Below, one piece after another: positions 14,609-62,015 of a stretch of DNA of 64,000 nt (positions are counted from its first letter, which is position 1; each line of letters begins with the position of its first letter). The notes under the pieces were generated by a model. That model made no database searches and had not been told where the DNA came from. It worked only from the letters and a program-made list of their open reading frames with translations. The stretch comes from a virus. Its lineage: Duplodnaviria > Caudoviricetes. The position numbers and the translations under genes were made by a program. The stretch lies in IMG/VR virus record IMGVR_UViG_3300027983_002389, one strand, 5' to 3'.

Positions 14609-14785
14609 ATGCAGAAAGGTTTAGTTAATAGTTCGATCCGTATAGATTTGTCCGACAAAGCACCGGATGAGATAGCTGAATATCTGCAAGCCCTTCTTGC
14701 CATTCGATATTCCCTGCACAAAAAGGGACTCAAGTTGAAAATTGAACGTCGTCGTCCAGCCAAGGTAAAAATTACTCAGGCATAG
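14609..14785 (+). CDS. small basic hypothetical protein
   Basis: AAGGTG RBS, TAAATA at 14571. Confidence 0.55.
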   Translation: MQKGLVNSSIRIDLSDKAPDEIAEYLQALLAIRYSLHKKGLKLKIERRRPAKVKITQA

Positions 14786-14816
14786 GTCGAACCAAACGCC
14801 TTTTTCACTCTCTAGG
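14785..14816 (+). promoter_or_regulatory. class B promoter motif copy 1
   Basis: GGTCGAACC-N14-CTCTCTAGG. Confidence 0.85.
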
Positions 14817-14869
14817 TTCGTGAACACCACTTTTCACAACTTTTCACAACTCATCGAGAGAGGCCCGCC

Positions 14870-15199
14870 ATGTCTACTGATCGTGATCGCTCTGTCCCGG
14901 AAGGCGGTATTAAGGTCGGTCAAGGTGCCGTTTTTGGCATCGGCAGTGATCGTTACCCATATACCGTGGTTGAAATTTCCAGTCCAACTCGTGTTGTGGT
15001 TCAGGCCGATAATTATCGGCGCACGGACCAGAATGGGATTTCGGAGGCTCAGACATACGAATACACCCCCAATTCTTCAGCCTGTCGTATTGTCGTGACT
15101 CGTCGTAAAGACGGGGCGTGGCGAAAGAAAGGCGACACCAAGGGCGGTGGAAGATTCTCATTCCACGGACGCCATGCTTATCAAGACCCCAGCTTCTAG
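14870..15199 (+). CDS. conserved phage hypothetical protein
   Basis: SDRYPYTVVE...Y.DPSF pattern. Confidence 0.8.
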   Translation: MSTDRDRSVPEGGIKVGQGAVFGIGSDRYPYTVVEISSPTRVVVQADNYRRTDQNGISEAQTYEYTPNSSACRIVVTRRKDGAWRKKGDTKGGGRFSFHGRHAYQDPSF

Positions 15200-15226
15200 C
15201 GAATATTTTGGGAAACAAGAGAGGTA

Positions 15227-15258
15227 GGTCGAACCAAATTCGACTGTGCCTCTCTTGT
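15227..15258 (+). promoter_or_regulatory. class B promoter motif copy 2
   Basis: GGTCGAACC-N14-CTCTCTTGT. Confidence 0.85.
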
Positions 15259-15294
15259 CTTTTGTAAACACAATACGCCAAAGAAAGCAATATC

Positions 15295-15750
15295 ATGTCG
15301 AATGTCACGAAGCAATTCGTCCTTGCGGGTCGCTCAATCTTCACTATTGAAATTGCTGAAGACTATCGGGCCAAGCACGATCTCAAACCTCATTACACGT
15401 TCCGAGTGGACCATAAGGCCCCTGAAGGCAAATGGAAGGAAACGTGGTTTGTTAAATACCTTACCGGGTCTGACAATACTCGTGACTATTCTTACGTTGG
15501 CACTCTTAATGCCGAGAATGGGCAGGTCCGCACCACCGCTAAGAGCAATCTGAATGACAATAGTATTGTCTTCAAGCTACTCACTCATACTCTTGCCCTA
15601 ATTTGGGGCAATGATGTGACGCCGATGACCGACAAGGGATTCGGACTTCACCATGAAGGTCGCTGTGGCAAGTGTGGTAAATTGCTTACCACTCCATCAT
15701 CAATTGCTATCGGCGTCGGACCAGAATGCTTAATTAGGCTCAACAGGTGA
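15295..15750 (+). CDS. DUF6011-like Zn-finger protein
   Basis: HEGRCGKCGKLLTTPSSI..GVGPEC. Confidence 0.8.
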   Translation: MSNVTKQFVLAGRSIFTIEIAEDYRAKHDLKPHYTFRVDHKAPEGKWKETWFVKYLTGSDNTRDYSYVGTLNAENGQVRTTAKSNLNDNSIVFKLLTHTLALIWGNDVTPMTDKGFGLHHEGRCGKCGKLLTTPSSIAIGVGPECLIRLNR

Positions 15751-16039
15751 GACCAATTCCTAATTTTGAACATTAGGAATTGGTCCATGTTGCATATCAT
15801 TGTCACAAGACAAATAAACTGCGTAGTCTTCTTTGTTCAGCTTGCAACTTAGGATTGGGAAAATTTCAAGACGATCCAAATTTGTTGAAAGTTGCTCTTG
15901 CTTATCTGGAAAAACATAAAACTGACTGAAAAAGAAAAATGAGCAATTTGTATTTTGACACCTATACGAATTGGAATTCGGAAAAGGCAAACGAGGCTGT
16001 TCGGGATGAATATTTACGTCTTTCACGGGGATCGGAACA

Positions 16040-16555
16040 ATGACCGAAGATGATTATTACAACTTCAACAGTCCTTATTTTAGGTCTTTCAAGCCTGCTG
16101 TGATTCGCAACGAAGACTCAATACTTGACACCTGGAATTCGGAAAAGGCAAACAAGGAACGAGATATATTCGGCGAAAAAGAAAAAGGGTTATTCTACAA
16201 CTACTCCGACCGTCTTGAACAATGGGACTATGAAAAGACTCGGAGAGCCAACGAATATGCTCGGTTGGTTGCAGAGCCAAAAACCGCCAGATACTTTACA
16301 GCCATGTTGTCGTATTTCCACAATGGCAGCAAAGTCATTCTTCGACATATCATTGCTGGTTGTAATCGGTCCAACGGTTTTCCATATTTGGTTTATGGTT
16401 ACAAATATGAAGAAGATGCTGTTGAAGACCTCAAGAGACTGGCTGAATACGATGAACTGATTAAGGTTCGTTCTCAAGTGGTCGAACAAGCTGTCGAAGA
16501 TTTTGCCGCTAAATTTGACGAGACAATATCAGCGGTTTTGGAAAATATCAATTAG
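16040..16555 (+). CDS. hypothetical protein
   Basis: 171-aa ORF; YSDRL.QWD, N.SNGFPY motifs. Confidence 0.75.
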   Translation: MTEDDYYNFNSPYFRSFKPAVIRNEDSILDTWNSEKANKERDIFGEKEKGLFYNYSDRLEQWDYEKTRRANEYARLVAEPKTARYFTAMLSYFHNGSKVILRHIIAGCNRSNGFPYLVYGYKYEEDAVEDLKRLAEYDELIKVRSQVVEQAVEDFAAKFDETISAVLENIN

Positions 16556-16586
16556 GTCGAACCAAATTCACATTCTGCTCTCTTGG
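16555..16586 (+). promoter_or_regulatory. class B promoter motif copy 3
   Basis: GGTCGAACC-N14-CTCTCTTGG. Confidence 0.85.
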
Positions 16587-16622
16587 TTTTTGTAACGAAC
16601 AAACACAACACCCTTTTGGAGA

Positions 16623-17747
16623 ATGGTCATGTCGCAGCGAGTTGTTAATTATACGGCTGGTGAAAAGGTTGAAGAATTGGTTGCTCTTGGCGACATTACT
16701 GTCAGCCACAATCCTCGTGCTTCGCTTCGAGGCGTCCTCGATCTTTTCCATAGTGACGGCAGTTCGAGCCAATCACCGGAAACCCGGCAGGCATTCGTAT
16801 CGTATATGCTGGAGGAACACCCGGAGATTGATGGGCTTCGCAAGTCCATCGAACAGCACGGTTTGCTTCAGTCGCCAGTGGTGCGAGCCTTTCGTGCCAA
16901 GCAGGGCGATGAATATGTCCAGCGATATGGTATTGTGCTGGGCGAAGGTCGTATTTTGGCTCATGCTCTGATCGAAGCCACGACCGGCGTTGCTCAGAAA
17001 ATTCGTGTTCGCATCGAATCTCGGTTGGGTGTGGACGCTGCTTTTGAGCAGGGTTTGGCTGAAAACCTTGACCGAAACGACATGAACCCTGTCGATCTGG
17101 CGACGGCATTCCATGAGATGTTGACGATTCGTATCAATCCGGCTACAAAGTCCCCTGAAGTCAATGGGGAAGCCAACCCGCTGTATTCTTCCGACAGTCC
17201 GAAGGGTCGTCCGTATACGCTTCGAGAATTGGCCGAACGTGTCAATAAGACATATTGGTGGGTTCGAGATCACGAAGCGATTTCGTACCTTCCCGATAAC
17301 TTGCAGTCGCAGTGTATCAAGTCCTGGCAGTCGGGTAAGCGAAATGTTACTCGGTTCTGCAAGCTGGGTCTTCGATACAAGGCTCAAGTGACTGGACAAC
17401 CGGAAGAAACCGGGCTTGACAGCCAGACTGAAACAACCGATACTGTCGCAAATGATGGAACTTCGACGGAACTTGTCGGAACTTCGACGGAAACTGCCCA
17501 AGTTACGCAGCTTAACGTGGAAGCACCAATTTCCCTTGAACCTGCACAGCGACGGCGTGTCCTCAGTCTGAAGTCGGTGGTGGGATTGTTCGATGGAACG
17601 GCACTGGAAAACAGGGAGCGGCTGCTGACGCTGGCTGAAGTCATGGGAATCACTCTTGAAGAGGCTTTGACTGAACGAGATTTACGTCTTGCTCACCAAG
17701 CCGACACCCAGGCTCGCAAGCAACAGAAGAAAGTTGTAACTGTTTGA
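16623..17747 (+). CDS. ParB/Spo0J-like protein
   Basis: LRKSIEQHGLLQSPVVR, IVLGEGR, ENLDRNDMNPVDLA, HTH LRELAERVNK. Confidence 0.8.
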   Translation: MVMSQRVVNYTAGEKVEELVALGDITVSHNPRASLRGVLDLFHSDGSSSQSPETRQAFVSYMLEEHPEIDGLRKSIEQHGLLQSPVVRAFRAKQGDEYVQRYGIVLGEGRILAHALIEATTGVAQKIRVRIESRLGVDAAFEQGLAENLDRNDMNPVDLATAFHEMLTIRINPATKSPEVNGEANPLYSSDSPKGRPYTLRELAERVNKTYWWVRDHEAISYLPDNLQSQCIKSWQSGKRNVTRFCKLGLRYKAQVTGQPEETGLDSQTETTDTVANDGTSTELVGTSTETAQVTQLNVEAPISLEPAQRRRVLSLKSVVGLFDGTALENRERLLTLAEVMGITLEEALTERDLRLAHQADTQARKQQKKVVTV

Positions 17748-17762
17748 AATAAATCAAGGTTT

Positions 17763-17794
17763 GGTCGAACCAAAAGCCGACCAAACTCTCTTGG
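17763..17794 (+). promoter_or_regulatory. class B promoter motif copy 4 (upstream of sigma gene)
   Basis: GGTCGAACC-N14-CTCTCTTGG. Confidence 0.85.
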
Positions 17795-17853
17795 TTTTTG
17801 TAGGAACGAACTTAATCAGGATGAACCCCAACACAACGTCGAAGGAGAAGATC

Positions 17854-18876
17854 GTGGACTTTCAAGAAATTCCTTACTTCAAACTGTCAGGCAACCAGAA
17901 ACAAAAAACCCTCGAAATTCTCGGTCGTGGCAATGTCCTCTTGAAGAAGTGGGCTGCGTTCTTCCCGCCCAAGAAGTACCGACAGTTCCGCAACTCCGTG
18001 ATGGATGGCAGCACGAATCCTCAGCACGAAGGCAAGACTGGAATTCCTTCCGACAAGTTGAAGGAATTCCACGCTGACCTACCTTTCATGACGGCAATTC
18101 GTCATGGCAAATATGACGATCTCGATGGTCGCTCGGTTGAGCAGACGGTACTTGAAGGCTTCAGCGCTCTTGCCAAGGGACATGCTCGCAAGTGGTCGTT
18201 GGAAGGTGATCCGGTTGGATTGACCAAGCAGGACTTCTTACAGGAAGCCTACATGCAGGTCATCGAAGCCATGTATTCATGGTTGCCAGAATTCAATGTC
18301 GAAATCTCGACATACATCTGGTGGGCATTGAAGAACCGGATGAGCAATGTCGTCAACCAACAGGGTCAGATGCTTTGTCCACTCACCAACTCCGATCTGG
18401 AACTGATGACTCGGTTTGAGCAGAAGAAGCGTGGAATGCCACAATACTTCACGTTCGATCAGATCATTGCTGAGTTGGGACTCTCTAATGAGGAAGGCAA
18501 GCATTTGAACACACTGTTGACTCGTGTGTTCGCTGAGAATCAGTTGGGCGGTCAACAGGATGGACACGACGATATGAGTGCTTCCGGCAATGACTACACC
18601 GGGCATCGTGTTGGCGTGGATCGGGAGTCGGAAACCGAAACTGTGTTGCAAGAGCAGCATGTCATTGACACCTTGAACCGGGCTGGTTTGAACACGTTGG
18701 AGCGACAAGTGATTGAAGCGGCAATGGAGCCGTACCACGGATGGCAGACGGAATTTGCCAAGACCCATACCAACCCAGCAACGGGCAAGCCATATTCTCG
18801 CATGAGAATCACACAGGTTCTCGAAATGGCACGAGAAAAGGTTGCCAAGACTTTGGAGCTACAAAAAGCGGCCTAA
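17854..18876 (+). CDS. phage sigma70-family RNA polymerase sigma factor
   Basis: region 2 QDFLQEAYMQVIEA...ISTYIWWALKNRM; region 4 LNTLERQVI...YSRMRITQVLEMAREKV; AAGGAG + GTG 17854. Confidence 0.8.
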   Translation: MDFQEIPYFKLSGNQKQKTLEILGRGNVLLKKWAAFFPPKKYRQFRNSVMDGSTNPQHEGKTGIPSDKLKEFHADLPFMTAIRHGKYDDLDGRSVEQTVLEGFSALAKGHARKWSLEGDPVGLTKQDFLQEAYMQVIEAMYSWLPEFNVEISTYIWWALKNRMSNVVNQQGQMLCPLTNSDLELMTRFEQKKRGMPQYFTFDQIIAELGLSNEEGKHLNTLLTRVFAENQLGGQQDGHDDMSASGNDYTGHRVGVDRESETETVLQEQHVIDTLNRAGLNTLERQVIEAAMEPYHGWQTEFAKTHTNPATGKPYSRMRITQVLEMAREKVAKTLELQKAA

Positions 18877-18893
18877 GCAATGACGGTCAACAG

Positions 18894-18924
18894 AAAAGCC
18901 GGGGTTTTATCCCCGGCTTTTTTT
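18894..18924 (+). terminator. Rho-independent terminator
   Basis: aaaagccgggg-tttta-tccccggctttttt. Confidence 0.9.
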
Positions 18925-18925
18925 A

Positions 18926-18957
18926 GGTCGAACCAAAAGAGTATTTGACTCTCTAGG
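18926..18957 (+). promoter_or_regulatory. class B promoter motif copy 5
   Basis: GGTCGAACC-N14-CTCTCTAGG. Confidence 0.85.
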
Positions 18958-18965
18958 ATTTTACT

Positions 18966-19643
18966 ATGAACTACAAAATCATCACCGATGAACAAAAGCT
19001 GGATGAATTCATCAGCTTTCTGCCAGACATTGAAGACACGGAGGTTTATTATCTCTGTTTGTTCGGTCGGCACAAATATGCTGCCGAGTTTCCCAACACC
19101 AAGGACAGTGGGCAATTGGCTCGTATTGCTTCTCGTAAGGGCGACCTCAAAGAGAAGATTCGTCGGCTAGAAACCCCTGTGGGTTCTTACTCACGAGACG
19201 GTGCAGTGGCTCCCCAAGAGGCATTGGCTGTTTATATTGGGTTGAATCCTCGGTCATTGGCGAAGGCGAATAAGAAGCTGCTCATTGAGTTGGCGACTCG
19301 TATTTCCGAAGGCGATCTGAATTTCAATCCGATTTCAGCCGCCACCACCGAGATTCATCGAGCAACTTCTCGTAAGTTCTTTGTGGACTTCGACTACGAT
19401 CACGTTGATCCTGTTGAGCAACTTCCCAAAATCAAGGAAATTCTGCCTGATGGTGCCTATAAGGTGCTGAAGACACGGGGCGGTTTTCATTTGATTGTCG
19501 AATTGGCCAAGATGAATACGCCAAAACGCAAGGATTGGCACAAACAATTGGCTTCTTTACCAAATTGTGATGTTCGTGGGACCAATAATCTGACGCCGGT
19601 TCCTGGTTGTACTCAGGGAGGTTTTACACCCTATTTTCTATAG
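18966..19643 (+). CDS. AEP (primase-polymerase)-like protein
   Basis: FVDFDYD, KTRGGFHL, PVPG motifs. Confidence 0.6.
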   Translation: MNYKIITDEQKLDEFISFLPDIEDTEVYYLCLFGRHKYAAEFPNTKDSGQLARIASRKGDLKEKIRRLETPVGSYSRDGAVAPQEALAVYIGLNPRSLAKANKKLLIELATRISEGDLNFNPISAATTEIHRATSRKFFVDFDYDHVDPVEQLPKIKEILPDGAYKVLKTRGGFHLIVELAKMNTPKRKDWHKQLASLPNCDVRGTNNLTPVPGCTQGGFTPYFL

Positions 19644-19675
19644 GGTCGAACCAAAAGGGAACTTCACTCTCTTGG
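19644..19675 (+). promoter_or_regulatory. class B promoter motif copy 6
   Basis: GGTCGAACC-N14-CTCTCTTGG, followed by TATATA 19678. Confidence 0.85.
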
Positions 19676-19688
19676 CATATATACCAGC

Positions 19689-20327
19689 ATGATGACATTC
19701 AAGGAATTTTTAATGGCCGACACTGTGAACCTTCGGGAAGTTTCCCTGTTTGACTCGACTTTTCTGTTCAATGAAATGGCTGTTCTGAATCAGAACTCCA
19801 TCACCAAGACTCAGACAGCGATGCAATTCATTCACAACAACAATATTCCCGGTGTCATCATTGGTGGTATTGCAGTGTCCAATTACACCCACGACAGGCC
19901 GCTCACCCCGGACGTGGATTTTTTGACTCCCAATATCGCCGGGTTGAAAACCCTGCTGCAACAGCAGAATATCGCTTTCCAGCCATTGGCTTCCAGTGGT
20001 GAGTTTGGTGGTATTTACGTTCCATCGCTTGATGCTGACTTTTTGGACGTGTCCGAGGGCAATGTCGGACTGAACCGATATATCATCCAGACTGCTACAA
20101 CTGCCAAGATCGGGGGCGTGTCCTTTCCAATTATTGACGCAGCGGTATTGACGATCATGAAGTTCATTATCGGTCGTGATAAAGATCAAACTGATGCCTT
20201 CAAATTGCTTCCGACCATCCCCAAGGCCACGCTCAAGCTCCACTTGAAAGCGTTGGGTCGATACCTGCCAGAAGACATGGATGCACAAACGATCTGGAGC
20301 TACGCCAAGGCAATGTCTCCGGGCTAA
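19689..20327 (+). CDS. nucleotidyltransferase (Pol-beta superfamily) with CTS-like N-terminus
   Basis: IIGGIAV...RPLTPDVDF, K...GRDKD..D; starts MMTFKEFL. Confidence 0.75.
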   Translation: MMTFKEFLMADTVNLREVSLFDSTFLFNEMAVLNQNSITKTQTAMQFIHNNNIPGVIIGGIAVSNYTHDRPLTPDVDFLTPNIAGLKTLLQQQNIAFQPLASSGEFGGIYVPSLDADFLDVSEGNVGLNRYIIQTATTAKIGGVSFPIIDAAVLTIMKFIIGRDKDQTDAFKLLPTIPKATLKLHLKALGRYLPEDMDAQTIWSYAKAMSPG

Positions 20328-20328
20328 T

Positions 20329-20357
20329 TTTACAGTTCTCTTATATTGTGGTAGAAT
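20329..20357 (+). promoter_or_regulatory. sigma70-type promoter (class A)
   Basis: TTTACA-N17-TAGAAT. Confidence 0.8.
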
Positions 20358-20474
20358 CCGGTATGTCGCACGTTTGTGGTGTGTTGTGACACCTTCAACA
20401 TCACAACCGGCAAAGTTGTCGGTGCTTAATTTGTGTTCACTGTTCACCGCCTGTCCTCGACGAAAGAAACTGAA

Positions 20475-20663
20475 ATGCGTGGCTACGGATTACCTCGGAG
20501 ACTTAATATTGAATGTCCTAGCGTTTGGGACATCAAGAACTTTGGTTTGAACACTTCTGCCGGTGGAGACCTGTTCAAAAATAAGAATTCAAAAGCAGCA
20601 AGCCGACGCATATGGAAGAGGCTTGCTCGACGTGCTGGCAAAGCTGCTTGCAACTGCGACTAG
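20475..20663 (+). CDS. small basic hypothetical protein
   Basis: MRGYGLPR...RRIWKR.AR. Confidence 0.65.
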   Translation: MRGYGLPRRLNIECPSVWDIKNFGLNTSAGGDLFKNKNSKAASRRIWKRLARRAGKAACNCD

Positions 20664-20743
20664 ACTTTGTGTTCACTGTTCACTGTTCACCACTTGTCCT
20701 CAACGTGTCAACCCAATCTTTCACTCTCTTTTGAAAAAGACAA

Positions 20744-21337
20744 ATGCAGTCTATTCACATTAGCGACTTCGTGCGCCGTCAAACCCCCCAAAGCGGGTTC
20801 TCTCACTGGACTCTCAGTGATGAAGAGTTGCTGGCTCGCATTCAGAAGAATTTGGATAAAGCCAAGCCCGGTTATCGTGAAGGCGTCATCCTCGTCCCGG
20901 TTGAGCCTGATGGCTTCTTCAGCAGCACCGTATTGCTCCGTGAAGGCGACGTATTCGTTGGCGAGTATGTCGCTCGCAAGGCTGGCGAAGAACCTCGCAA
21001 GTCCACCTACGTTGTTTCTAACAAGCTAGGTGAGCCGGTGGAGAAGATCGAGGCTGTGAGTGTCGATATTGTCTTGTATGCTCACAACGTATTGGCTGAG
21101 AACGACGAGAACGACACTGACGCCGAATATGAAATCATCAGCGTCAACGCCAATGCTTCTGAGGAAGAGGCTCCGATTCCAACTGGCGCTCTAATTGCCA
21201 ATCATCTGCAATTGAGTGGCGGGACTGCCACGCACCTAAACAATGATGAGTTTGTAGAGCTTTTAAGAAAGAGTGTTTCTTATTGGAAAGACAAATCATT
21301 AGTCTGTCCTGAACATTTGCGCAACTTGCGCAACTAA
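20744..21337 (+). CDS. DUF3228-like protein
   Basis: PGYREGV, Y.AR..GEEP, N.L..SGG, SVSYW. Confidence 0.6.
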   Translation: MQSIHISDFVRRQTPQSGFSHWTLSDEELLARIQKNLDKAKPGYREGVILVPVEPDGFFSSTVLLREGDVFVGEYVARKAGEEPRKSTYVVSNKLGEPVEKIEAVSVDIVLYAHNVLAENDENDTDAEYEIISVNANASEEEAPIPTGALIANHLQLSGGTATHLNNDEFVELLRKSVSYWKDKSLVCPEHLRNLRN

Positions 21338-21574
21338 CTGGGATGGCAACTTCTTGAGGAAAAGGGTTACGATGCAATCTGACGACAGAATCAAGCGAAT
21401 CAATGGTTTCATGAAAGAATCCGTTGATCGTTCATATCAAAAAATTGAAAATCTGGGAACCCCGATTCGTGATGAACGTGGACGCCTTCTTCCTCAGCCG
21501 CAGAGTGACCGAGAGAAAGTAATTTTTCTTTCGGGTCAAATCAGCATGGCTTTGTTTGTTCAAGGAGCAACGTC

Positions 21575-22114
21575 GTGAACTTCAAACTGCGAGCGGCGTG
21601 TAAAATAGCTTATGAATCATTGTCTAATCCCGACGTAGCCAAGCGGGATTACGATGCAGCACAAGCGGTCTTGTCTCAGCACGCAGCAGACATTTGGCGT
21701 TACATCTGTAAACAGTCAAAGCGAACACTTGGATGGGATTTGGCATCGGTTATTGGGCCAGAAGTGGTCAAGATACAAGGTGACTACAGCGAATTTGTCA
21801 CTGAGATTGGAGAATTCGAGACACGGGATAATCCTCACTACAAATATACTGAGGGATTTCCAACAGAGTTGTTGTTATCTGATGATTGGCAGTCCATTGT
21901 TGACAAGCATATTGTCGATGCTGTAGAAAATTACGCTGTGGAGAATCGAGAGAAGATAGAAGAAAAAAACAAAATCAAAAAGGCAAGCAAAGTCAGGCAG
22001 AAAGTAACCCGTCAGCGAACCGAAGAATTGCAAAGGTCGGTCTTGGAAAAGACCAAAGATGTTCTCACTGAAGAAGAGTACGAATTTCTTGTGAAAAACC
22101 TGTTTTCAAGGTAG
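21575..22114 (+). CDS. hypothetical protein
   Basis: AAGGAG + GTG, 179 aa. Confidence 0.75.
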   Translation: MNFKLRAACKIAYESLSNPDVAKRDYDAAQAVLSQHAADIWRYICKQSKRTLGWDLASVIGPEVVKIQGDYSEFVTEIGEFETRDNPHYKYTEGFPTELLLSDDWQSIVDKHIVDAVENYAVENREKIEEKNKIKKASKVRQKVTRQRTEELQRSVLEKTKDVLTEEEYEFLVKNLFSR

Positions 22115-22118
22115 AACA

Positions 22119-22466
22119 ATGATTAAGCCAATCACTCCACGAGAGGTCATCGGCAAAAAGACAGAATTGATCCCTGATGCAGTTCTGCTGGCATTCAATG
22201 AAACAATTGCTCGCACCTATCACAACGGAGTTGCGACCTTTACTCAGGACGAAATTATTCTTCTGATTATCCAAAAGTTTGAGCAAGAAGTCAATAAGGG
22301 ATTGGGTGCTGAAGACTGGATTAAACAGTCTCGACAACAGGTTTTTGATAATCATTGGTTGGACGTTGAAGGCATTTATCGCAAAGCAGGCTGGATTGTC
22401 GAATATGACAAACCGGCATACAACGAGTCATATCCAGCCACTTTTACTTTTCGGGGCAAGCTATGA
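22119..22466 (+). CDS. conserved phage hypothetical protein
   Basis: WLDVE.IYR.AGW.VEYDKPAYNESY. Confidence 0.8.
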   Translation: MIKPITPREVIGKKTELIPDAVLLAFNETIARTYHNGVATFTQDEIILLIIQKFEQEVNKGLGAEDWIKQSRQQVFDNHWLDVEGIYRKAGWIVEYDKPAYNESYPATFTFRGKL

Positions 22467-22981: not shown

Positions 22982-23030
22982 AAGCCTAAGCAGCCTCGCA
23001 AGCCTCGTAAAAAGAAGGATACATAGTGTT

Positions 23031-34064: not shown

Positions 34065-34096
34065 GGTCGAACCAGGAGAACACTTCACTCTCTAGG
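34065..34096 (+). promoter_or_regulatory. class B promoter motif copy 7
   Basis: GGTCGAACC-N14-CTCTCTAGG. Confidence 0.85.
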
Positions 34097-36357: not shown

Positions 36358-36389
36358 GGTCGAACCAAATACAGTTTTCACTCTCTTGG
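36358..36389 (+). promoter_or_regulatory. class B promoter motif copy 8
   Basis: GGTCGAACC-N14-CTCTCTTGG. Confidence 0.85.
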
Positions 36390-36429: not shown

Positions 36430-36729
36430 ATGAGCCATCAACAACTTCAAGTTCAGCCCACACGATTTATCAATGCTGAACCTGGCATTTTACCCTCCTT
36501 AGAAGGCCCTGTGCCGATTGTGTTATTGTCCTTCGGAGCCGAGGAAGGCCCCATTGAAGATCGAGCCATTGGCATCATAGAGGCTCGACAAATGGTTATG
36601 GACATTCTGGAATCGTTGGCTACGATGGGTGATCCGCTTGCTCAGGCCATCGGCAGTCAGTTTTTCTCACATCAAGAATCTTCCGACGATGGAAGCGAGT
36701 ATGACGATGAATGTTCCGATTGTGAGTAA
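36430..36729 (+). CDS. acidic hypothetical protein
   Basis: 99 aa after class B motif. Confidence 0.7.
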   Translation: MSHQQLQVQPTRFINAEPGILPSLEGPVPIVLLSFGAEEGPIEDRAIGIIEARQMVMDILESLATMGDPLAQAIGSQFFSHQESSDDGSEYDDECSDCE

Positions 36730-53094: not shown

Positions 53095-53107
53095 AATACG
53101 GTAGAAT
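53079..53107 (+). promoter_or_regulatory. sigma70-type promoter (class A)
   Basis: TTTACA-N17-TAGAAT. Confidence 0.8.
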
Positions 53108-53128
53108 CTAGTTCAAGGAACCGATCAC

Positions 53129-53506: not shown

Positions 53507-53519
53507 ACAAGGGTGAATA

Positions 53520-54134: not shown

Positions 54135-54966
54135 AAAACTTTTTTTCTATGGAGAACGTGTAATGGAACTTAAAACCATCGCAGTCATTTCCAGACATCT
54201 TGAAACGTATTGAATCCATAGACGGATTCGGTGTTGTTCAGATACAGTATCAAACACTTGTCGTTTTCACGACAAGATATGCAATTTCCAAATCCCGAAA
54301 TGCAAAGAACATTTCTGGAGGCGTTCTTTGGTGGCAACAAGGATATTCTTGATCTGCCAACCACATTGTCATATGTTGTTCAATTTGCCAAATTTGTGAT
54401 TTTCGATGTCCAAAATAACTGAATTCAAATTTACTGGAAGAACACCAACATCTGGAAGAACACCATCATCAAAGATGGAGAAAGGGAGGGAAAATATGCA
54501 CGATCTGAGTCATGAATACGATGACGAATGCGAATGCTGTCAGCCAGGGTTGATAGACTTGAAGACTGGCAAGCAGATGGAGAAAGACCATCCGGTTATG
54601 ATCGCCGTGCTTAAAGCATGGAAAGAAAGAACAACTTTCGCAGAACGTCGAGCCACCAGCCGAGTGTGGATGGGACAATCAACTAATCCAACTGAAATCA
54701 GAATCATGGAGAAGGTTGGCGGCATGATTCAAGAGGTCATCAAAGAGATCGAAGAATGAAACCTCAAAAATTCACTCGAACCATTGATGACGACAACGCC
54801 CCTGAACGACTTCGGGGATTGGTTATGCTTGCGGTATTGACTGAAACACGATTGGAGTTTCAAGTTGATTTACCCAATGAACTCACCAATCAAGAAATTG
54901 CCTATCTCAGGTGGTTCACTGGTGAAATAGTGGACGAGATGAAGACTAAGTTGCCGCCTGATACAT

Positions 54967-55350
54967 TTGGAGAAGCCAGATATGGAAACAAAATTCATAG
55001 AAGTGACGAACAACAACCAGAATTGGGGTAAGTTTTTGTTATTTCGTTTTGACAACGAATGGCAATATGAATCTGCACTCAGTGGTCGTTCATTACTCAA
55101 TGAAGTTGGTTGGACCGAAGACAACATCTTCTTATTGGACCTACAAACTGGTGAGGGCGCTCGATTTAGACCGGGTGGACTCGCCAGTACCGATTTGGAT
55201 AAACACAAAATATGGTGCTGTCCAATGTACGAGCCGTTCCTAAACTGGCTCTACAAACAAGACCTAACAGATTTCAGCAAATTGCCTGATTCACTTAATT
55301 TGCCTGACGCCGAGTTTCAATACAGAGGATACAGAAGGGAAGGTAAATGA
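54967..55350 (+). CDS. conserved phage hypothetical protein
   Basis: NWGKF, DLQTGEGA.F.PGG.A..DL.KH.IW.CP.YEPFL.WLY. Confidence 0.8.
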   Translation: MEKPDMETKFIEVTNNNQNWGKFLLFRFDNEWQYESALSGRSLLNEVGWTEDNIFLLDLQTGEGARFRPGGLASTDLDKHKIWCCPMYEPFLNWLYKQDLTDFSKLPDSLNLPDAEFQYRGYRREGK

Positions 55351-55741
55351 ATCAGCCTAATCTACACCATGAAGGCCCGCTCACTGTTGAACTCGTCAGT
55401 GGACTCATGAATAAAGCCAAATTAGCAATGGACGAAATCATTGCTTTTGAACCTCCTGACGAAGATATTGAATGGGTTATTTGCAAAGGCAATTGGGCCA
55501 AGCAACTGCAATATGCAGGCATTCGTTGTGCTGCCATCCTCACAAAGCTGGAGATGAATATCGAACATCGTCTTAAAGAGGACCATAAGTGCATTGATAT
55601 TACTTTGTGTATTCTTCGAGACTACGAGGCAGCTAAGGCAAAGAACTGGACGTTGGCTGAATAACTGGACTACGCTGACGAAATGGAAGATCATGATCCT
55701 TCCTATGAGGATGGTCGGCATTTTGAGGAAATCAAGTAGAT

Positions 55742-55770
55742 TTTACAGTTCTTGCAATGCGTGGTATAAT
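55742..55770 (+). promoter_or_regulatory. sigma70-type promoter (class A)
   Basis: TTTACA-N17-TATAAT. Confidence 0.85.
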
Positions 55771-55778
55771 CAGAAATC

Positions 55779-56165
55779 ATGAGTAAAATTCGACTCGATA
55801 TTGGACGCCCAACACCTATGCCCGGTCGCTATCGCCCTGATTATTGGGTGGTGCGACAAGAGGGCAATCTCATTGTTCGCTACAATAACGAGCTTAATCG
55901 TTTTGGATGGCCTCGGCTGAAGACCATAGCCGAGAAAGCCCTCAAGGAATGCGACCTATGGGACTCACATGGTACGCATCGAGCCGAAATTGGCAATTTG
56001 GACGGTGTTCTCTATATCGCCTTCCCCATCAAAGACCCTGCTGGTAATGTCAATGTCTGTATTGAAACACAGGTTGGATTTGAAACAGGATTGGGGGTCA
56101 AACTGTCTGACCTTGCGGAATACGACTTAATCAGTGACGGACAACACAAACATGGCATCAACTAA
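55779..56165 (+). CDS. hypothetical protein
   Basis: 128 aa after promoter. Confidence 0.7.
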   Translation: MSKIRLDIGRPTPMPGRYRPDYWVVRQEGNLIVRYNNELNRFGWPRLKTIAEKALKECDLWDSHGTHRAEIGNLDGVLYIAFPIKDPAGNVNVCIETQVGFETGLGVKLSDLAEYDLISDGQHKHGIN

Positions 56166-56420
56166 AGTCGATAACTTTTGCCCGATATGCAAAAAAGAAA
56201 TACAGCCAGGATTGACGATCTATATCACCAAGGTCAACTTGACCGATAATGGTCGCACTGGTTCTGGTGATGGCGGCATACCTTTTGGAGGCATATATAA
56301 GCCAACGCCAGAAGGAAAACTCCGCATCAAATATCTTGGCAATTCCACACCACGAGTATGCGTTCATCAGGAATGCTATGAATCAAAAATAGAATCCATC
56401 CTCTTTGGAAAAAAGAAGAA

Positions 56421-56852
56421 ATGAGACACACAGAACTATTATCGCCTGAAGCCCAAGAAGAATTCGGCAATGCACTGGAAAGTGTGTTCAACGGAATTCT
56501 CAAAAGATCACACGAAGAACGAGAACAGACTGAGCCTTGGAAGAATCTTTTCACAGCTTCCGAACAAGGGCTGCGTGGCATCCTCAGCGAAGCCAATAGT
56601 CAGATGGTGCGTGTGACTATTGACACTACTGATATTATCCAAAAGAAGTTCGGCATTCGGTGTTCTAACAAGTTGCATGGGTTGATTAAAGCCCTGCCAT
56701 TTGTCATGAACAAATTGGGCGATGCCATTCACGACGAACAAGGCTTGTCATGTTGTAGCGATAAAGCACGACAAGTTTACTACGATGAGGTCTTGGCTGA
56801 GATCAAACATCTGTTGAAAGAACAGAGAAAAAACAAGGAAATTCAACCATGA
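56421..56852 (+). CDS. hypothetical protein
   Basis: 143 aa. Confidence 0.7.
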   Translation: MRHTELLSPEAQEEFGNALESVFNGILKRSHEEREQTEPWKNLFTASEQGLRGILSEANSQMVRVTIDTTDIIQKKFGIRCSNKLHGLIKALPFVMNKLGDAIHDEQGLSCCSDKARQVYYDEVLAEIKHLLKEQRKNKEIQP

Positions 56853-57397
56853 AGTACATCGAAGGCGATCTCTTTGACCATGTCCCTACTGAAGACGATG
56901 AAGTAGTCATCATAGCCCATGTTTGCAATGACATTGGCGCATGGGGTGCTGGTTTCGTCGTGCCTTTGGGTCGCAAATATCCTTCGGCCAGACAGTCATT
57001 CATTGATATGACTGAGAGGAACCTTGGCGAAGTGATGTTCGTTCCTCAAGCTGACAAGATCGTTGTCGCCAATATGATCGGGCAGGAAGGCACCGGCCCT
57101 AAATTCGAGGGCGACAAAATGATTCCTCCTATTCGATATGAGGCATTGAAGAAGTGCCTACATCACGTTCACGCTATGGCAAAAGGGTTTCAGCAGCAAG
57201 GTAAGAAGGTCCGCATCGCTTGTCCCATGTTCGGTGCTGGTCTTGCTGGTGGTGATTGGGACACGATTTCCCAAATGATATTTTTGATCTGGTCTGAACA
57301 AGGGATTGAGACTAACATCTATTATCTCCCTCAATTCCTTCCACCGGGGTTCACACCCCCAGGAGCAGATGATGGCAAGCAAGAAGTCGCCACTTGA
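56849..57397 (+). CDS. macrodomain (ADP-ribose processing) protein
   Basis: YIEGDLF, IAHVCN..G.WGAGF, N.IGQ, P.FGAGLAGGDW. Confidence 0.9.
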   Translation: MKYIEGDLFDHVPTEDDEVVIIAHVCNDIGAWGAGFVVPLGRKYPSARQSFIDMTERNLGEVMFVPQADKIVVANMIGQEGTGPKFEGDKMIPPIRYEALKKCLHHVHAMAKGFQQQGKKVRIACPMFGAGLAGGDWDTISQMIFLIWSEQGIETNIYYLPQFLPPGFTPPGADDGKQEVAT

Positions 57398-57724
57398 GTT
57401 GTCGCCCGAAGAAATGTCTACATATGTCGGCACGGTAAAAGATGCTGTTCAATTATTTTTGAATGAATCAGGCGTCGGGAGTAAATTCTCCGACCTTGTG
57501 GCATTCATGAACACACGATTTCGCACTGCTGATGAGCAAATGTTCAAAGAATGGACCGAGAAGGAATTCCCAGGTCAGTTCACTTACACTCACACTCACA
57601 CAGCAACTTACGATGGTGGCGAAGATGTGGTGGATTAAACCTTCTGACCTTGGAGAGAAGACCAAAACTGGATATTCAAGAACAAAGTTTGCCACGTCTG
57701 TAGTTTCCATAATGGAGTCCACGG

Positions 57725-58123
57725 ATGAATGATATGAATGATATTGAAGATGTACTAAGGAATGCCAAAGTGGTATTTGGTCTTGAGAAGCAAGGCCATA
57801 TCCCAACCATTAGCAGGCTACTCGCCGAAGGAAAAAAGTGGGATGAGATTGGAGAGGTAATTGGCTGGTGTTCAATTACAGCACGAGAACACTATGAGCA
57901 ATACCTTCACCGATCAGATGCCATTCAAACAATCTGGTTTGAAAATGAAGTCTGTCCTCTACTCGCAAGAGCAGTTGAAATGTTGAGGAAATTCGGCAAT
58001 AAGCCAGAGACTCCAGTTTGGGATCGCAATGATATTTCCAGCTTCATTTATCATGCCGAGAAACACCTGTTGTCATCACCAAAAAACATTCATCCTATTT
58101 TGAAGTCTCCAGAAGATGTCTAA
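57725..58123 (+). CDS. hypothetical protein
   Basis: 132 aa. Confidence 0.7.
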   Translation: MNDMNDIEDVLRNAKVVFGLEKQGHIPTISRLLAEGKKWDEIGEVIGWCSITAREHYEQYLHRSDAIQTIWFENEVCPLLARAVEMLRKFGNKPETPVWDRNDISSFIYHAEKHLLSSPKNIHPILKSPEDV

Positions 58124-58736
58124 TACAAAAGAGCAAAGATTGGCATTCGCCGTCAGTTGTCTTAAATTGGCTCGAAAAGAGATCAAGGATCATGGACGTG
58201 AGTTCATGAAGCCAGACGAAGATGTTTTTGACTCTGCCCTCCAATACGGTGGCTCCATCAGTCCAAAATTGACGAAGGCCGAAGTCATTGACGCTGACCA
58301 ACTGAACCATCAACGTCGGGATTGAATCCTCTCATGGACCACTCTACGACGGGATTGAAAAAGATTACTTTAATCCACTGGAGTTGCTATGAGTAATTTA
58401 ATGTACAAAGGGATTGAATGCGTCTTCAGCGAGAAAGCCGAGGCAATACTTTCATCTGATGATCTCAAGATTTTTTTGCTAGATTCATTTTTTACCTACG
58501 AACCCATTGATTCAATAAGATGGGTTAACGTCAAAGAAGCAACAGATGACGAGCAATTGCCAATGTATCGCATTAGCAATAATGCCAATCAATCATTGTT
58601 ATTGTGGCCCACACTAAATGGCAGTGATCTCTTGCTCGCCGTTGACTCTGTTGAGGACAGACCAGATTTGGGGTGGATTAAAAACAAAAATTGACTATAA
58701 TTGCAGTGGTGTTTTAACCCCTTTTAGGAGAAGAAA

Positions 58737-59492
58737 ATGCAAGAAGAAGTAAAGCCTAATACCACCAAAGAAATGAAATCAAATCTCGGTGGCTCTCCCA
58801 ACGTCGTATTTAGTTTCGACACCACTGGAAGTATGAACCCCTGTATTCAACAGGTGCGACAAAAACTGCGTGATCTCATCGAAATGATGACTGCCGATAT
58901 TCCCGGCCTCAAGATTGGTCTAATCGCCCACGGCGATTATTGTGATGGCGACAATGCCATTGCATTCCTCGATCTAACTGATGATCTCGAAAAGATCATG
59001 ACCTTCATTAACACTACACCCAATACTAGCGGTGGCGATCCTCCTGAATGCTACGAATACGCTCTCCAGACGGCAAGGAAAATGTCTTGGCCCAAGGAAG
59101 GTGGCAGCGTAGTGCTTATTGGTGACGATGAACCGCACGAAGTAAATCCCAATAATATCAATTGGCGGGATGAACTGCGTCAGATGCTTGAACTCAATGT
59201 CAAAGTATTTCCGATGCAGTGTCTATTCAGTAACCTTCGTGTCAATGCCAATGAGTTTTGGGAAGAAGTTTCTCAAATCAGCGGAACGCCACTGTTAATG
59301 CTTGAATCCTTTGGCGATAGCGCCAATACGCTTGAAGCTGTATCATATGCTGCATCTGGTGGCGCTGCATATGATACCTACAAAGGCAAATTCGCATCAG
59401 AAGTTTCAAGTGGCATGAGAAGTTGCGCAACTAGCAATCTTGTGGACAATCAGTCCAAGCTGGAAACGTATGCCAATAGTCCGAAAGGGTAA
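58737..59492 (+). CDS. vWA domain protein
   Basis: FSFDTTGSM MIDAS, HGDYCD, GGD.PECY, LIGDDEPH. Confidence 0.9.
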   Translation: MQEEVKPNTTKEMKSNLGGSPNVVFSFDTTGSMNPCIQQVRQKLRDLIEMMTADIPGLKIGLIAHGDYCDGDNAIAFLDLTDDLEKIMTFINTTPNTSGGDPPECYEYALQTARKMSWPKEGGSVVLIGDDEPHEVNPNNINWRDELRQMLELNVKVFPMQCLFSNLRVNANEFWEEVSQISGTPLLMLESFGDSANTLEAVSYAASGGAAYDTYKGKFASEVSSGMRSCATSNLVDNQSKLETYANSPKG

Positions 59493-59497
59493 AGGTC

Positions 59498-59746
59498 GTG
59501 AAAGAACAGGTTGAAGAAACGCTCAGAGAGGAAAATCCGAACGCATTGTTCCTTGATGGTTTCGATGAAGCCATTATCGGGATTGCCAGACGAGCAAACC
59601 TCGCCGTCGTCGCCTACAGTGAATTGACCTGCATTGATATTCTCATGCAGTAACAAAAAATGACCGAAGACGAAGCCTGGGATTACTTTGGACACAATAT
59701 CCAAGGGGCCTGGGTGGGCGAACACACGCCAGTTCTCATCAGCTAA
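59498..59746 (+). pseudogene. conserved small phage protein with in-frame TAA at 59651
   Basis: FLDGFDEAIIGI...CIDILMQ*QKMTEDEAWDYF..NIQGAWVGEHTP. Confidence 0.75.
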
Positions 59747-59766
59747 CCCAACTTCACTTTAAGCCG

Positions 59767-59792
59767 AAAAGCCACTCACGAGTGGCTTTTTA
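59767..59792 (+). terminator. Rho-independent terminator
   Basis: aaaagccactc-ac-gagtggcttttt. Confidence 0.8.
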
Positions 59793-59821
59793 TTTACAGT
59801 CATTTATTTTCATGGTAAAAT
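59793..59821 (+). promoter_or_regulatory. sigma70-type promoter (class A)
   Basis: TTTACA-N17-TAAAAT, tandem with class B copy 9. Confidence 0.75.
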
Positions 59822-59828
59822 CCCAATT

Positions 59829-59860
59829 GATCGAACCAAAATGACAATTGGCTCTCTAGG
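59829..59860 (+). promoter_or_regulatory. class B promoter motif copy 9
   Basis: GATCGAACC-N14-CTCTCTAGG. Confidence 0.8.
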
Positions 59861-59865
59861 CGGGT

Positions 59866-60087
59866 GTGAAAGAAATGCAATCACCACCACAATCAGGCGA
59901 AATATGGGTGAATATCCATACTAGCAAAAAGGCGACCATTCAGTCAATTGAGGAAGCGAGAGGCGGGTTGGTTGTCGTATATGACCAACCTGAATGGAAA
60001 AAACAGCGATGCGACATCGTGACATTCAATGTCCATTGGAAACGATTCAAATCAGCCAGTAAATGGTTTTTGGGAGCATTGCAATGA
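59866..60087 (+). CDS. small protein ending WFLGALQ
   Basis: 73 aa. Confidence 0.7.
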   Translation: MKEMQSPPQSGEIWVNIHTSKKATIQSIEEARGGLVVVYDQPEWKKQRCDIVTFNVHWKRFKSASKWFLGALQ

Positions 60088-60360
60088 TAACGATTGTTTT
60101 AGATGCCCATCGAATCCCTGATGGAACTGAAGTTCGCAAGCTGACAGGTCAGAAAGTCTATGTCTTACAGAGACAACTCAAGATTTACATGCCCGGCGAA
60201 AGAAAAGATGTCAATTTCGACGGATTCGTGTTTCTCACGTCGGATCGTTCAATCAATGGCTACCCGGACACAAACAAATTTGCCATAGACCTGCCTGACG
60301 AAGACGCTGTTGAATTTGTGGAAAAACTCCTGACGCCCATTCCGTATTGAAAGACGCACA

Positions 60361-60804
60361 ATGAAACGCAGCAAACCATTCATCGACGATCATGCAGAAG
60401 AACCACCTGAAGTGGATTTGGCACAACTTCGTCAACTTACCGAGCAAGCCATTCAACGTGGCAAGTGGAAAGAAGAAAAACGACTGGTTGACATTAAGGT
60501 CGAAGACGAACGAAAGGTCAAGCGTGACCAGTTGTTCGCTGCCGCCGTATTGTCTGATTTTCCTGATAAGTGTGAGAAGGAAGCGGGACGAGGCCGATCT
60601 CACGCCATCATCATGGGGCTGAAATACAGTCGAGATTATGTCTACCAAGGCAATAATTTCAACTCTATTCATGTTGAGTTGCTTACAGGCCCCGGAGCAA
60701 TCGTTTGGAACTACCTGCAAGAAGCTGGACTCAAACCTTCGATTGAGTATTGGCATGACGGCATGGGCATGGAAAGCGGCTTCAACATTCTCGTTCACTG
60801 GTAA
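60361..60804 (+). CDS. hypothetical protein
   Basis: WHDG.G..SGF.I.V.W C-terminus. Confidence 0.75.
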   Translation: MKRSKPFIDDHAEEPPEVDLAQLRQLTEQAIQRGKWKEEKRLVDIKVEDERKVKRDQLFAAAVLSDFPDKCEKEAGRGRSHAIIMGLKYSRDYVYQGNNFNSIHVELLTGPGAIVWNYLQEAGLKPSIEYWHDGMGMESGFNILVHW

Positions 60805-60814
60805 GGACCATCGT

Positions 60815-61342
60815 ATGTGCATGACTCAACGTGTTGTTTCTGAGAAGCCAGTCTCATTGGTGCCGCAGGATGCTTTCAAAGTATTCTCCCGCACCAAAGA
60901 TGGGCAGCTTCAGTCTGTCTTCGTGCCGACCTTCAAAGTGGGATTGATATATCCACCGAATGAGCGAATTCGAGTGGACACTGAGGATGCCACGTTCTTC
61001 GCTTTTGAGAACTTCAAAAATGCAATATCCATTGCACGGCAGGGACGCAAGCGATGGAATATGGTCAATGGTGATTTGATCGTATTGCCTGTCACAATGA
61101 ACGAAATTGTCGCAACAGGCAAATACTTCGTCCGCAGCGAAGACGTTCAGTGCTTGGATGGGTTTTACCCGGCTTTAGAGTCCAAGGAAATCATCGTCCA
61201 CGACACTGAAGAAAACCGCAACGCTTTCTACGACGCTGTATTGTCTCAGTGGTTGGGATTACAAAAATACAGCATGTCCAAGATCGAGAAGGAAGCATTT
61301 GCCGCTCGCATACCGCATTTGGCTAAGGCCGCATTTGGCTAA
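60815..61342 (+). CDS. hypothetical protein
   Basis: AAGGA RBS, MCM start. Confidence 0.7.
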   Translation: MCMTQRVVSEKPVSLVPQDAFKVFSRTKDGQLQSVFVPTFKVGLIYPPNERIRVDTEDATFFAFENFKNAISIARQGRKRWNMVNGDLIVLPVTMNEIVATGKYFVRSEDVQCLDGFYPALESKEIIVHDTEENRNAFYDAVLSQWLGLQKYSMSKIEKEAFAARIPHLAKAAFG

Positions 61343-61539
61343 GGCCACAAAGTAATGGACAAAATACAAAAGCTGAAAGAACTCTTGGCCGACATTCGCA
61401 TTAAACACGGCGTTGATTATGCCATTTTGCACAAATATGGCAAAACCCGTGTGATGTGCGACAAGATTTGGGAGCAATCAATAAAGGAACAGGCGGCAAT
61501 TGTCGATTTGGAGATTTTTGATTGGCATTTCTACAACTA

Positions 61540-61571
61540 GGTCGAACCATTCAGGATATTTCCTCTCTAGG
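61540..61571 (+). promoter_or_regulatory. class B promoter motif copy 10
   Basis: GGTCGAACC-N14-CTCTCTAGG. Confidence 0.85.
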
Positions 61572-61609
61572 TGTTTGTGGCGAACATCCTCAAACATGGA
61601 GACAAAATA

Positions 61610-61984
61610 ATGTGTAACACCAGAGGCATTTGTGATGAATGTGGCATCGAATGCGATTCTGTCACAGAAGACCAAGGCATCGGCCCTTATGAGTATTGGG
61701 GCAGTCGTGGTGTTCACCACGATTATGTTAAAGTTTCTCCATGTTGCGGCGCTGAAGTTGTAGAAGGTGGCAATACACTGGTTCGCATCAGCGACCATAC
61801 TGCCCGACGTGACCACAAAAGCGGCGGCATCAGAAAGGGCGACCACTATCGACTCGTTGTGACTCGTTGCTGGCGTCATCATGGTCCGCACTGGATTAGC
61901 ACTCGCAAGATCAAGAAGGACGCTCCACCCGTTCAATTCTTTGGCAAGTTCAAGTTCCTGAAAGGCGTCTCCAATGAGGAATAG
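61610..61984 (+). CDS. Cys-rich hypothetical protein
   Basis: CDEC, D.GIGPYEYWG, SPCC. Confidence 0.75.
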   Translation: MCNTRGICDECGIECDSVTEDQGIGPYEYWGSRGVHHDYVKVSPCCGAEVVEGGNTLVRISDHTARRDHKSGGIRKGDHYRLVVTRCWRHHGPHWISTRKIKKDAPPVQFFGKFKFLKGVSNEE

Positions 61985-62015
61985 GTCGAACCAAAACATA
62001 AATTTGATCTCTAGG
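61984..62015 (+). promoter_or_regulatory. class B promoter motif copy 11
   Basis: GGTCGAACC-N14-ATCTCTAGG. Confidence 0.85.

Follow-up and report, generated by a model that had tools for sequence, protein, structure and literature searches.

A putative phage-specific promoter class with two rigidly spaced boxes, and the phage sigma factors that might read it

A two-box motif, GGTCGAACC-N14-CTCTCTWGG, recurs directly in front of genes in a 64,000-nucleotide stretch of viral DNA (IMG/VR record IMGVR_UViG_3300027983_002389; Duplodnaviria, Caudoviricetes), referred to here as the window. The motif is very probably a phage-specific promoter class that is read by the host core RNA polymerase together with some phage-encoded sigma factor. 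An earlier note on this DNA had proposed such a private regulon, and the proposal is now backed by the strand bias of the copies, their position, their footprint in a comparison with the related contig G001, a copy in front of a tRNA gene, and searches of two relatives in which no phage RNA polymerase was found. The family of sites that carry the motif is called class II below. A sigma70-type promoter-like family is called class I, and a 28-bp motif is called class IV.

Copies of the motif in the window

A pattern search that allowed up to three mismatches recovered 11 sites in the window, 11/11 on the + strand (Table 1). Eight of the 11 match exactly and the other three have one mismatch. They are the same 11 sites that had been listed before, and they stand far above the 0.09 copies expected in shuffled sequence (maximum 1). 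When both strands were scanned with a weight matrix, the 11 sites scored 47-62 bits and the next best position -3.8; there were no degenerate copies. The rigid spacing that had been claimed holds throughout, with 14 nucleotides between the boxes in 11/11 copies. The two 9-bp boxes first described are real, but conservation extends further, and the full conserved stretch in the window is TAGGTCGAACCAAA-N11-CTCTCTWGGtTTTTGTa.

All copies are intergenic or lie on a stop codon, the gap to the next start codon being 8 to 59 nucleotides; in four cases the copy overlaps the stop codon that ends the gene before it. The copies had been described as lying usually at a stop or terminator. Gene boundaries were found for all of them, but a clear intrinsic terminator stands upstream of copies 18926 and 36358 only. 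Six copies fall within 4.9 kb around a sigma factor gene (sigma-d, 17854-18876), in agreement with the cluster reported earlier. In Pfam and PHROG searches most genes behind class II copies were without an assigned function. Among the labels previously given to these genes, DUF6011, ParB-like, sigma and SNF2 stood, but "AEP-like" for the 225-residue product encoded at 18966 had no Pfam or PHROG support, and the nucleotidyltransferase match was weak (E 0.003, under the cut-off). A message that begins at copy 18926 would, by prediction, have a very short leader or none and be nearly leaderless. The window has no near-identical record among deposited phages.

Conservation of the motif in related phages

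Two incomplete contigs were used for comparison. G001 is a 340-kb IMG/VR contig whose 172-244 kb are colinear with the window at 76-94% DNA identity. G004 (223 kb) comes from the same sample, has no DNA in common with G001 and carries a gene for a gp23-type major capsid protein (E 2e-88). The pattern GAACY-N13-15-YTCTCT occurs 25 times in G001, 25/25 on the gene strand, and the reversed control pattern not at all. These copies are scattered over more than 200 kb, with spacers of 14 nucleotides in 23/25 and 13 nucleotides in 2/25. For 10/11 window sites an orthologous copy is present in G001, in which the boxes GAAC(C/T) and CTCTCT.GG are retained and the spacers and flanks have diverged.

Each lineage has its own form of the motif. 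In the window and in G002, a 46-kb contig with four copies, it is TAGGTCGAACCAAA ... CTCTCTWGG, and TAGGTC adjoins GAACC in 15/15 copies of this lineage. The G001 form is TCG-nnnT-GAACY ... CTCTCTWGG. Further forms are nnGTGAACCAAA ... (L048/L049), ACGAAGTAAA-N11-TCCTCTWG (L041), GTCGAACY-N15-CCTCTW (L043), GAACCTAAA ... CTCTCT (L051, L052) and, from a single copy, GAAGT (L053). The box of L041 is thus CGAAGT, and that of L053 is apparently the same, as judged from its one copy. The core common to eight related lineages is GAAsy-N14-yyCTCT; GGTC is found only in the lineage of the window. The related-locus search, with a narrower alignment, gave only three metagenome loci. In L017 an identical class II copy and the head of the next gene occur at both 3375-3406 and 3648-3679, a tandem duplication 273 bp apart.

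Evidence for promoter function

In G001 a class II copy ends 9 nucleotides before an amber-suppressor tRNA with the anticodon CUA (L029 61-171, corresponding to G001 181974-182084), and a class I promoter lies 37 nucleotides further upstream. Because this copy precedes a tRNA gene, the element is likely to act on transcription and not on translation. Expression of the suppressor tRNA would then hang on class I and class II both. The Shine-Dalgarno sequence AGGAG often starts 5-6 nucleotides past the GG in G001, so the putative start site would follow the motif by no more than a few bases. Class I and class II copies also stand in tandem at 59793/59829 in the window and at 239270/239321, 181937/181974 and 58383/58453 in G001, a layout expected for genes that are expressed in two phases.

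Searches of G001 and G004, both incomplete, gave no match to the multisubunit RNA polymerase family PF00623 and none to the T7-like RNA polymerase family PF00940; the control for the latter family also matched nowhere, which makes that blank a weak one. As neither of the two relatives searched yielded a phage RNA polymerase, class II is most likely read by the host core polymerase with a phage sigma factor. A promoter for a single-subunit, T7-like polymerase was considered and rejected: such promoters have a contiguous conserved block of about 20 bp, which the variable spacer of 11-14 nucleotides breaks, and PF00940 was not found in G001 or G004 (the control again having matched nowhere). Appropriation of the host sigma factor in the style of T4 is unlikely, class II being without a sigma70-like -10 box.

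The motif could instead be a protein-binding or RNA element, such as a site for ParB or another regulator, a recombination or cassette junction, or a terminator or processing hairpin. Nine of 34 copies lie in significant hairpins (z < -1.64), T-rich sequence follows some copies, a ParB-like gene lies within the copy cluster, and in L017 a copy and the start of the following gene are tandemly duplicated. This explanation is nonetheless highly improbable. The boxes have no sequence relation to one another and are not palindromic, the orientation is always that of the downstream gene, and most copies have no structure above that of shuffled sequence, the hairpin fraction of class I sites being similar (17%). 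The same genes flank the copies at the orthologous positions of G001, which argues against mobile junctions, and the G001 copy before the tRNA gene counts against this explanation as well. A parS-type ParB-binding site in particular was rejected, since the boxes are not inverted repeats, the orientation to genes is strict and the copies are spread over more than 200 kb in G001.

The sigma factor gene in the copy cluster

The sigma-d gene starts with GTG at 17854, preceded by AAGGAG. When a profile of 66 sigma-d homologues was compared with the sequences of the PDB, it matched SigA/RpoD over regions 1.2 to 4, including region 3 (E 2e-14). The AF2 (AlphaFold2) model of sigma-d has a pLDDT (predicted local distance difference test) score of 93, and in a Foldseek search it aligned over its whole length to sigma A of T. 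thermophilus. The model had 147 PDB matches at E <=0.001, and all 50 of those listed were sigma70-family proteins, mostly principal SigA/RpoD. The Pfam family Sigma70_r2 matched sigma-d only at E 1e-3. There are 329 representatives of the sigma-d family at E <=0.001. Among deposited phages, the sole tblastn match was a 595-kb uncultured phage (26% identity), and a search of BFVD returned generic phage sigma factors only. By profile and structural model, sigma-d is a divergent full-length sigma70-family factor with predicted regions 1.2, 2, 3 and 4. An assignment to the extracytoplasmic function (ECF, group 4) sigma factors was rejected, given the length of 340 residues, the presence of regions 1.2-4, the lack of an ECF Pfam match and a TIGR02937 score of 26.5 against a cut-off of 42.9. 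The region 4.2 helix, SRMRITQ, follows the sigma70 pattern; this helix and that of sigma-b (below) were compared with solved sigma-DNA complexes. The ECF architecture proposed in the earlier note therefore stands in part: the GAAC box and the fixed spacing are ECF-like, but the adjacent sigma factor is not of the ECF type.

The motif copy that had been noticed in front of the sigma gene was confirmed and is retained directly before sigma-d in five lineages (the window, G001, L049, L041 and L043), none of which has class I there. In L042 and L044, whose sigma-d proteins are 45-50% identical, a sigma70-type promoter precedes the gene, and no clear class II copy was seen on their short contigs. 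The copy before sigma-d lies in a strong hairpin in 5/5 lineages. In the window the hairpin at 17759-17786 encloses the left box of copy 17763 (z -4.2), with a perfect stem of 9 bp by hand count and 10 pairs by the scan tool. Perfect stems measure 9 bp in the window, 11 bp in G001 (197020-197060) and 13 bp in L043 (1860-1900). Stem sequences and registers differ between lineages, the structure being kept and the sequence not. Insulation from read-through and regulation of the promoter are both candidate roles for this hairpin.

Phage sigma factors that could read class II

G001 has four sigma70-family genes, sigma-a to sigma-d (Table 1), of which only sigma-d and sigma-c have region 1.2. The product of sigma-b passes TIGR02937. 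Its region 4.2 helix, TVYNRLRR, resembles the ECF pattern, TV(K/R)SR(L/I)xR. Homologues of sigma-b were found in the ubiquitin-like locus of four lineages, and in 4/4 lineages seen the gene has a class I promoter within 600 nucleotides upstream. The sigma-b family (G001 sigma-b corresponds to L046 576-1274) has a conserved C-terminal tail rich in cysteine and histidine, HGGxxDECxERExCxLH. The tail may serve to sense metals or redox state, as do extensions fused to some bacterial ECF sigma factors.

From the motif, its placement and conservation, and the sigma repertoire of the relative we infer promoter function, a start site and a candidate reader. GAACC would serve as a -35-like box and CTCTCT(W)GG as a -10-like box at a fixed distance, and transcription would start a few bases past the GG. 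The reader would be the host core RNA polymerase with a phage-encoded sigma factor. Class II would drive dispersed non-structural genes and, in G001, the suppressor tRNA, working beside class I. In the wiring that we tentatively prefer, sigma-b, encoded outside the window, would be made early from class I promoters and would then read class II; sigma-d would be a class II target of a second wave and would read a later class. Sequence resemblance and analogy with known cascades suggest this arrangement without making it probable, and it is ranked slightly above self-activation of sigma-d. A GAAC-type -35 box, invariant spacing and near-invariant boxes are hallmarks of ECF promoters. Class II in the window matches that architecture (AAC in the -35 box, a short C-containing -10 box, a spacer constant within 1 nucleotide); L041 has GAAGT. 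By analogy with SPO1, whose sigma genes follow the preceding class (PMC13401047), the sigma gene behind class II would be a target and not the reader.

Several points weigh against this wiring. The choice of sigma-b comes from resemblance and cascade logic only, and sigma-b is known here from relatives and not from the genome of the window itself. It falls just under the Pfam ECF cut-off, and a Foldseek search with its model gave mixed small sigma factors, none better than E 0.001, with no decisive ECF match. The densest class II cluster (six copies in 4.9 kb) surrounds sigma-d and not sigma-b. The invariant GG after CTCTCTW falls where region 1.2 would contact the discriminator, and sigma-b is without region 1.2. 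Many ECF promoters have CGT or GTC in the -10 box, and CTCTCT has neither. The boxes are lineage-specific, but in the GAAGT lineages neither recognition helix, SRMRITQ of sigma-d or TVYNRLRR of sigma-b, has changed, and the comparison points to neither factor; for sigma-b, the helix of L053 is unchanged although the box there, in a single copy, is apparently CGAAGT. Were sigma-b the reader of class II, no class would be assigned to sigma-d, and giving it class IV would be a guess.

Alternatively, sigma-d may be the reader of class II and act on the copy in front of its own gene as well, in a positive feedback primed by read-through from a sigma70-type promoter near 14100. This is possible but doubtful. 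In its favour, a class II copy stands directly before sigma-d in five lineages, the copies are densest around sigma-d in the window and in G001, and the complete sigma2 and sigma4 domains of sigma-d would enable it to read a two-box promoter. In our own reading of the alignment, several residues of the sigma70 pocket for -11A are not kept in sigma-d, which makes a -10 box other than TATAAT plausible. The position of the invariant GG at the region 1.2 discriminator contact also points to a factor that has this region, which only sigma-d and sigma-c do. Moreover, region 4 of sigma-d differs between the window and G001 (T306I, G311N) beside the recognition helix, and the flank of the -35 box changes with it. 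Against self-activation, sigma-d is not ECF-like, and its helix has the sigma70 pattern and not the ECF pattern that goes with GAAC boxes; SRMRITQ is, furthermore, identical in the CGAAGT lineage. The strong hairpin around the copy before sigma-d, in 5/5 lineages, would hinder priming by read-through, and in L042 and L044 the sigma70-type promoter stands before sigma-d with no clear class II copy on the short contigs. The sigma genes for gp28 and gp34 in SPO1 use the preceding class and not their own (PMC13401047).

It has also been proposed that the phage hijacks a host ECF sigma factor of the RpoE/AlgU kind by setting host stress-sigma promoters before its genes. The geometry GAACnn-N16-TCTnn does match the RpoE/AlgU consensus, GAACTT-N16/17-TCTGA. 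Such a hijack is improbable, since the boxes and flanks differ (GGTC versus nnnT) between phages that are 80-87% identical in DNA, and since CGAAGT in L041, and apparently in the one copy of L053, drops the AAC found in nearly all ECF -35 boxes. A concerted change over dispersed sites fits a co-evolving phage factor better, and the phage lineage has at least four sigma genes of its own. The reader is probably encoded by the phage, since within a lineage the scattered copies share their box changes. Sigma-d and a host ECF factor, the two readers offered by the earlier note, both remain candidates, but neither is the sole option or probably the best one, as sigma-b fits at least as well.

A more elaborate arrangement would be a network of at least four phage sigma factors with one class each (I, II, IV and late), in which sigma-d both reads class II and is driven by it, a self-locking switch gated by the conserved hairpin. 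We regard this as unlikely, though less so than the hijack of a host factor. If true, a sigma network with feedback would be bacterial in style. To our knowledge, no such feedback sigma network has been described for a virus.

Relation to known systems

Private promoter classes read in a cascade of phage sigma factors are textbook knowledge from SPO1, T4 and phiEco32 (PMC13401047, PMC12276001). Class II is a clean further example of such classes, with an unusually rich sigma repertoire, and overturns nothing. Architecturally it resembles promoters of bacterial ECF factors of the RpoE/AlgU type in its GAAC -35 box, a TC-containing -10 box, rigid spacing, high stringency and, as in ECF operons under autoregulation, a copy in front of a sigma gene. 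It differs from them in that the adjacent sigma factor is not ECF, no anti-sigma gene was seen, CTCTCT is without CGT or GTC, and GAAGT replaces GAAC in L041 and apparently in the one copy of L053.

In SPO1, host sigma A is followed by gp28, which acts on middle promoters, and then by gp34 with gp33, which act on late ones; gp28 is the product of an early gene and gp34 that of a middle gene (PMC13401047). The phages described here are similar to SPO1 in that phage sigma factors would steer the host core polymerase to two-box classes, with sigma-b behind class I and sigma-d behind class II. They differ in the number of sigma70-family genes (at least four) and of abundant classes (at least three: I, II and IV), beside which there is a T4-like late motif; their boxes are unrelated in sequence to those of SPO1, and the system is known from sequence alone. 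In phiEco32 the small two-domain sigma factor gp36 reads the -10 and -35 boxes of near-invariant phage promoters with the host core polymerase, which is a likeness to the present case (PMC12276001). No sequence relation of gp36 to sigma-b or sigma-d was found, however, the promoter sequence is different, and phiEco32 has one sigma factor with the co-factor gp79 (PMC12276001). Jumbo phages of "group 2" are without a polymerase of their own; their phage-encoded sigma factors work with that of the host (PMC7824862). The T4-type members of that group share with the present phages a gp23-type capsid (G004), the lack of a detected phage RNA polymerase, phage sigma factors that go with the host polymerase, and early and middle promoters in tandem (PMC7824862). 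The middle promoters of T4 differ from class II: they pair a MotA box with the -10 box of host sigma70, and class II is without a sigma70-like -10 box.

Huge phages hold several sigma genes, and how these partition the genome is almost unknown, none of these phages having been cultured. Here the sequence suffices to define one class, by a sharp consensus, orthologous copies and lineage variants; a close relative has four sigma genes, and two further classes stand beside this one. A small wiring diagram follows from this, centred on which of two phage sigma factors reads GAACC-N14-CTCTCT. Pairs of promoter and sigma factor would be usable in vitro or as orthogonal expression parts.

Table 1 Class II and class I sites in the window, adjoining features, and sigma factor genes of the relative G001
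Feature	Position	Strand	Context	G001 orthologue
Class II	14785..14816	+	overlaps stop of 102-residue gene 14477-14785; 53 nt before 109-residue gene 14870-15199 (PHROG 33370, unknown function)	194135
Class II, 1 mismatch	15227..15258	+	36 nt before DUF6011 gene 15295-15750	194556
Class II	16555..16586	+	at stop of gene 16040-16555; 36 nt before ParB-like gene 16623-17747 (PHROG 4715, E 2e-10)	195816
Class II	17763..17794	+	59 nt before sigma-d gene	
Sigma-d gene	17854..18876	+	divergent sigma70-family (predicted), 340 residues	
Intrinsic terminator, AAAAGCCGGGG-TTTTA-TCCCCGGCTTTTTTT	18894..18925	+	closes sigma-d gene; next class II copy immediately after	
Class II	18926..18957	+	8 nt before ATG of 225-residue gene 18966-19643 (no family)	198204
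Class II	19644..19675	+	13 nt before gene 19689-20327 (weak nucleotidyltransferase match)	198917
Class II	34065..34096	+	12 nt before SNF2-family helicase gene, ATG 34109, end 36313 (SNF2-rel_dom E 3e-25)	211315
Class II	36358..36389	+	after terminator-like hairpin; 40 nt before 99-residue gene 36430-36729	213822
Class I, TTTACA-N14-TGGTAAAAT	59793..59821	+	in tandem with class II copy 59829	
Class II, 1 mismatch, GATCGAACC	59829..59860	+	14 nt before small gene 59875-60087	239321
Class II	61540..61571	+	at stop of gene 61355-61540; 38 nt before ATG 61610 (product starts MCNTRG; MCGIRG in G001)	242637
Class II, 1 mismatch, GATCTCTAGG	61984..62015	+	at stop of preceding gene; 44 nt before 284-residue gene 62060-62914	
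Class I, all window sites	2471, 7918, 10799, 20329, 23915, 28676, 29816, 32784, 37269, 39595, 47174, 53079, 55742, 59793	+		
Sigma-a gene	G001 48 kb		180 residues; FliA-like	
Sigma-b gene	G001 62.4 kb		about 220 residues; ECF-like, sigma2 and sigma4 only; E2/JAB/ThiF (ubiquitin-like) locus	
Sigma-c gene	G001 156 kb		315 residues; RpoS/RpoD-like; sigma70-type 2.4 and 4.2 helices kept	
Sigma-d gene	G001 197 kb		340 residues; divergent full-length	

Other promoter-like classes, hairpins and structured RNAs

Class I has the consensus TTTACA-N14-16-(T)GGTAnAAT, that is, a sigma70-type promoter with an extended -10 box. The window has 14 copies, all on the + strand, and G001 has 39 in forward and 2 in reverse orientation; the consensus recurs in L041, L049, L051, L052 and L053. 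Class I could be read by the phage factor sigma-c as well as by host sigma70.

Class IV, AGGTCCAGTGTACCCTAGTGGGTGTAA, looks like a third private set of promoters and is absent from the window. About 28 copies lie on one strand of G001 at 267409-291452 (L067-L068), each 25-40 nucleotides before a small gene; one copy precedes a tRNA-like sequence at 287450. A second array is carried by IMGVR_UViG_3300031952_000040. No sigma gene was found within the array in G001 or in the second array-bearing contig. The class could belong to sigma-d or sigma-a. A de novo dyad search after masking of classes I, II and IV returned tRNA-derived repeats only. At 19676-19691 a late-type motif, TATATA-N5-ATG, comes between copy 19644 of class II and the start codon at 19689, and gene 19689-20327 may be served by two promoter classes.

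Many class II spacers or flanks are complementary to one of the boxes. Copy 15227 lies inside a strong hairpin, GAGAGG...CCTCTC (-22.6 kcal/mol, z -6.2), as does its G001 orthologue at 194556. A hairpin was nevertheless rejected as a defining part of class II, since only 9/34 sites (26%) beat box-preserving shuffles at z < -1.64, against 17% of class I sites.

Two stretches outside the protein-coding genes were also seen. The stretch L037 89-208 (G001 about 267950-268066), which follows the class II copy at G001 267919, is GC-rich and has no open reading frame. With its two TTCG loops it has the look of a structured RNA; Rfam, searched with L037 at a permissive threshold (E up to 0.1), gave no family. 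In the window, at 3250-3383, a second tRNA-like stretch with CTCTAAAT and GGTTCGATTCC, which ARAGORN did not call, stands directly before the tRNA(CUA) that ARAGORN called at 3313-3383. This stretch could represent a second suppressor tRNA of truncated or unusual form.

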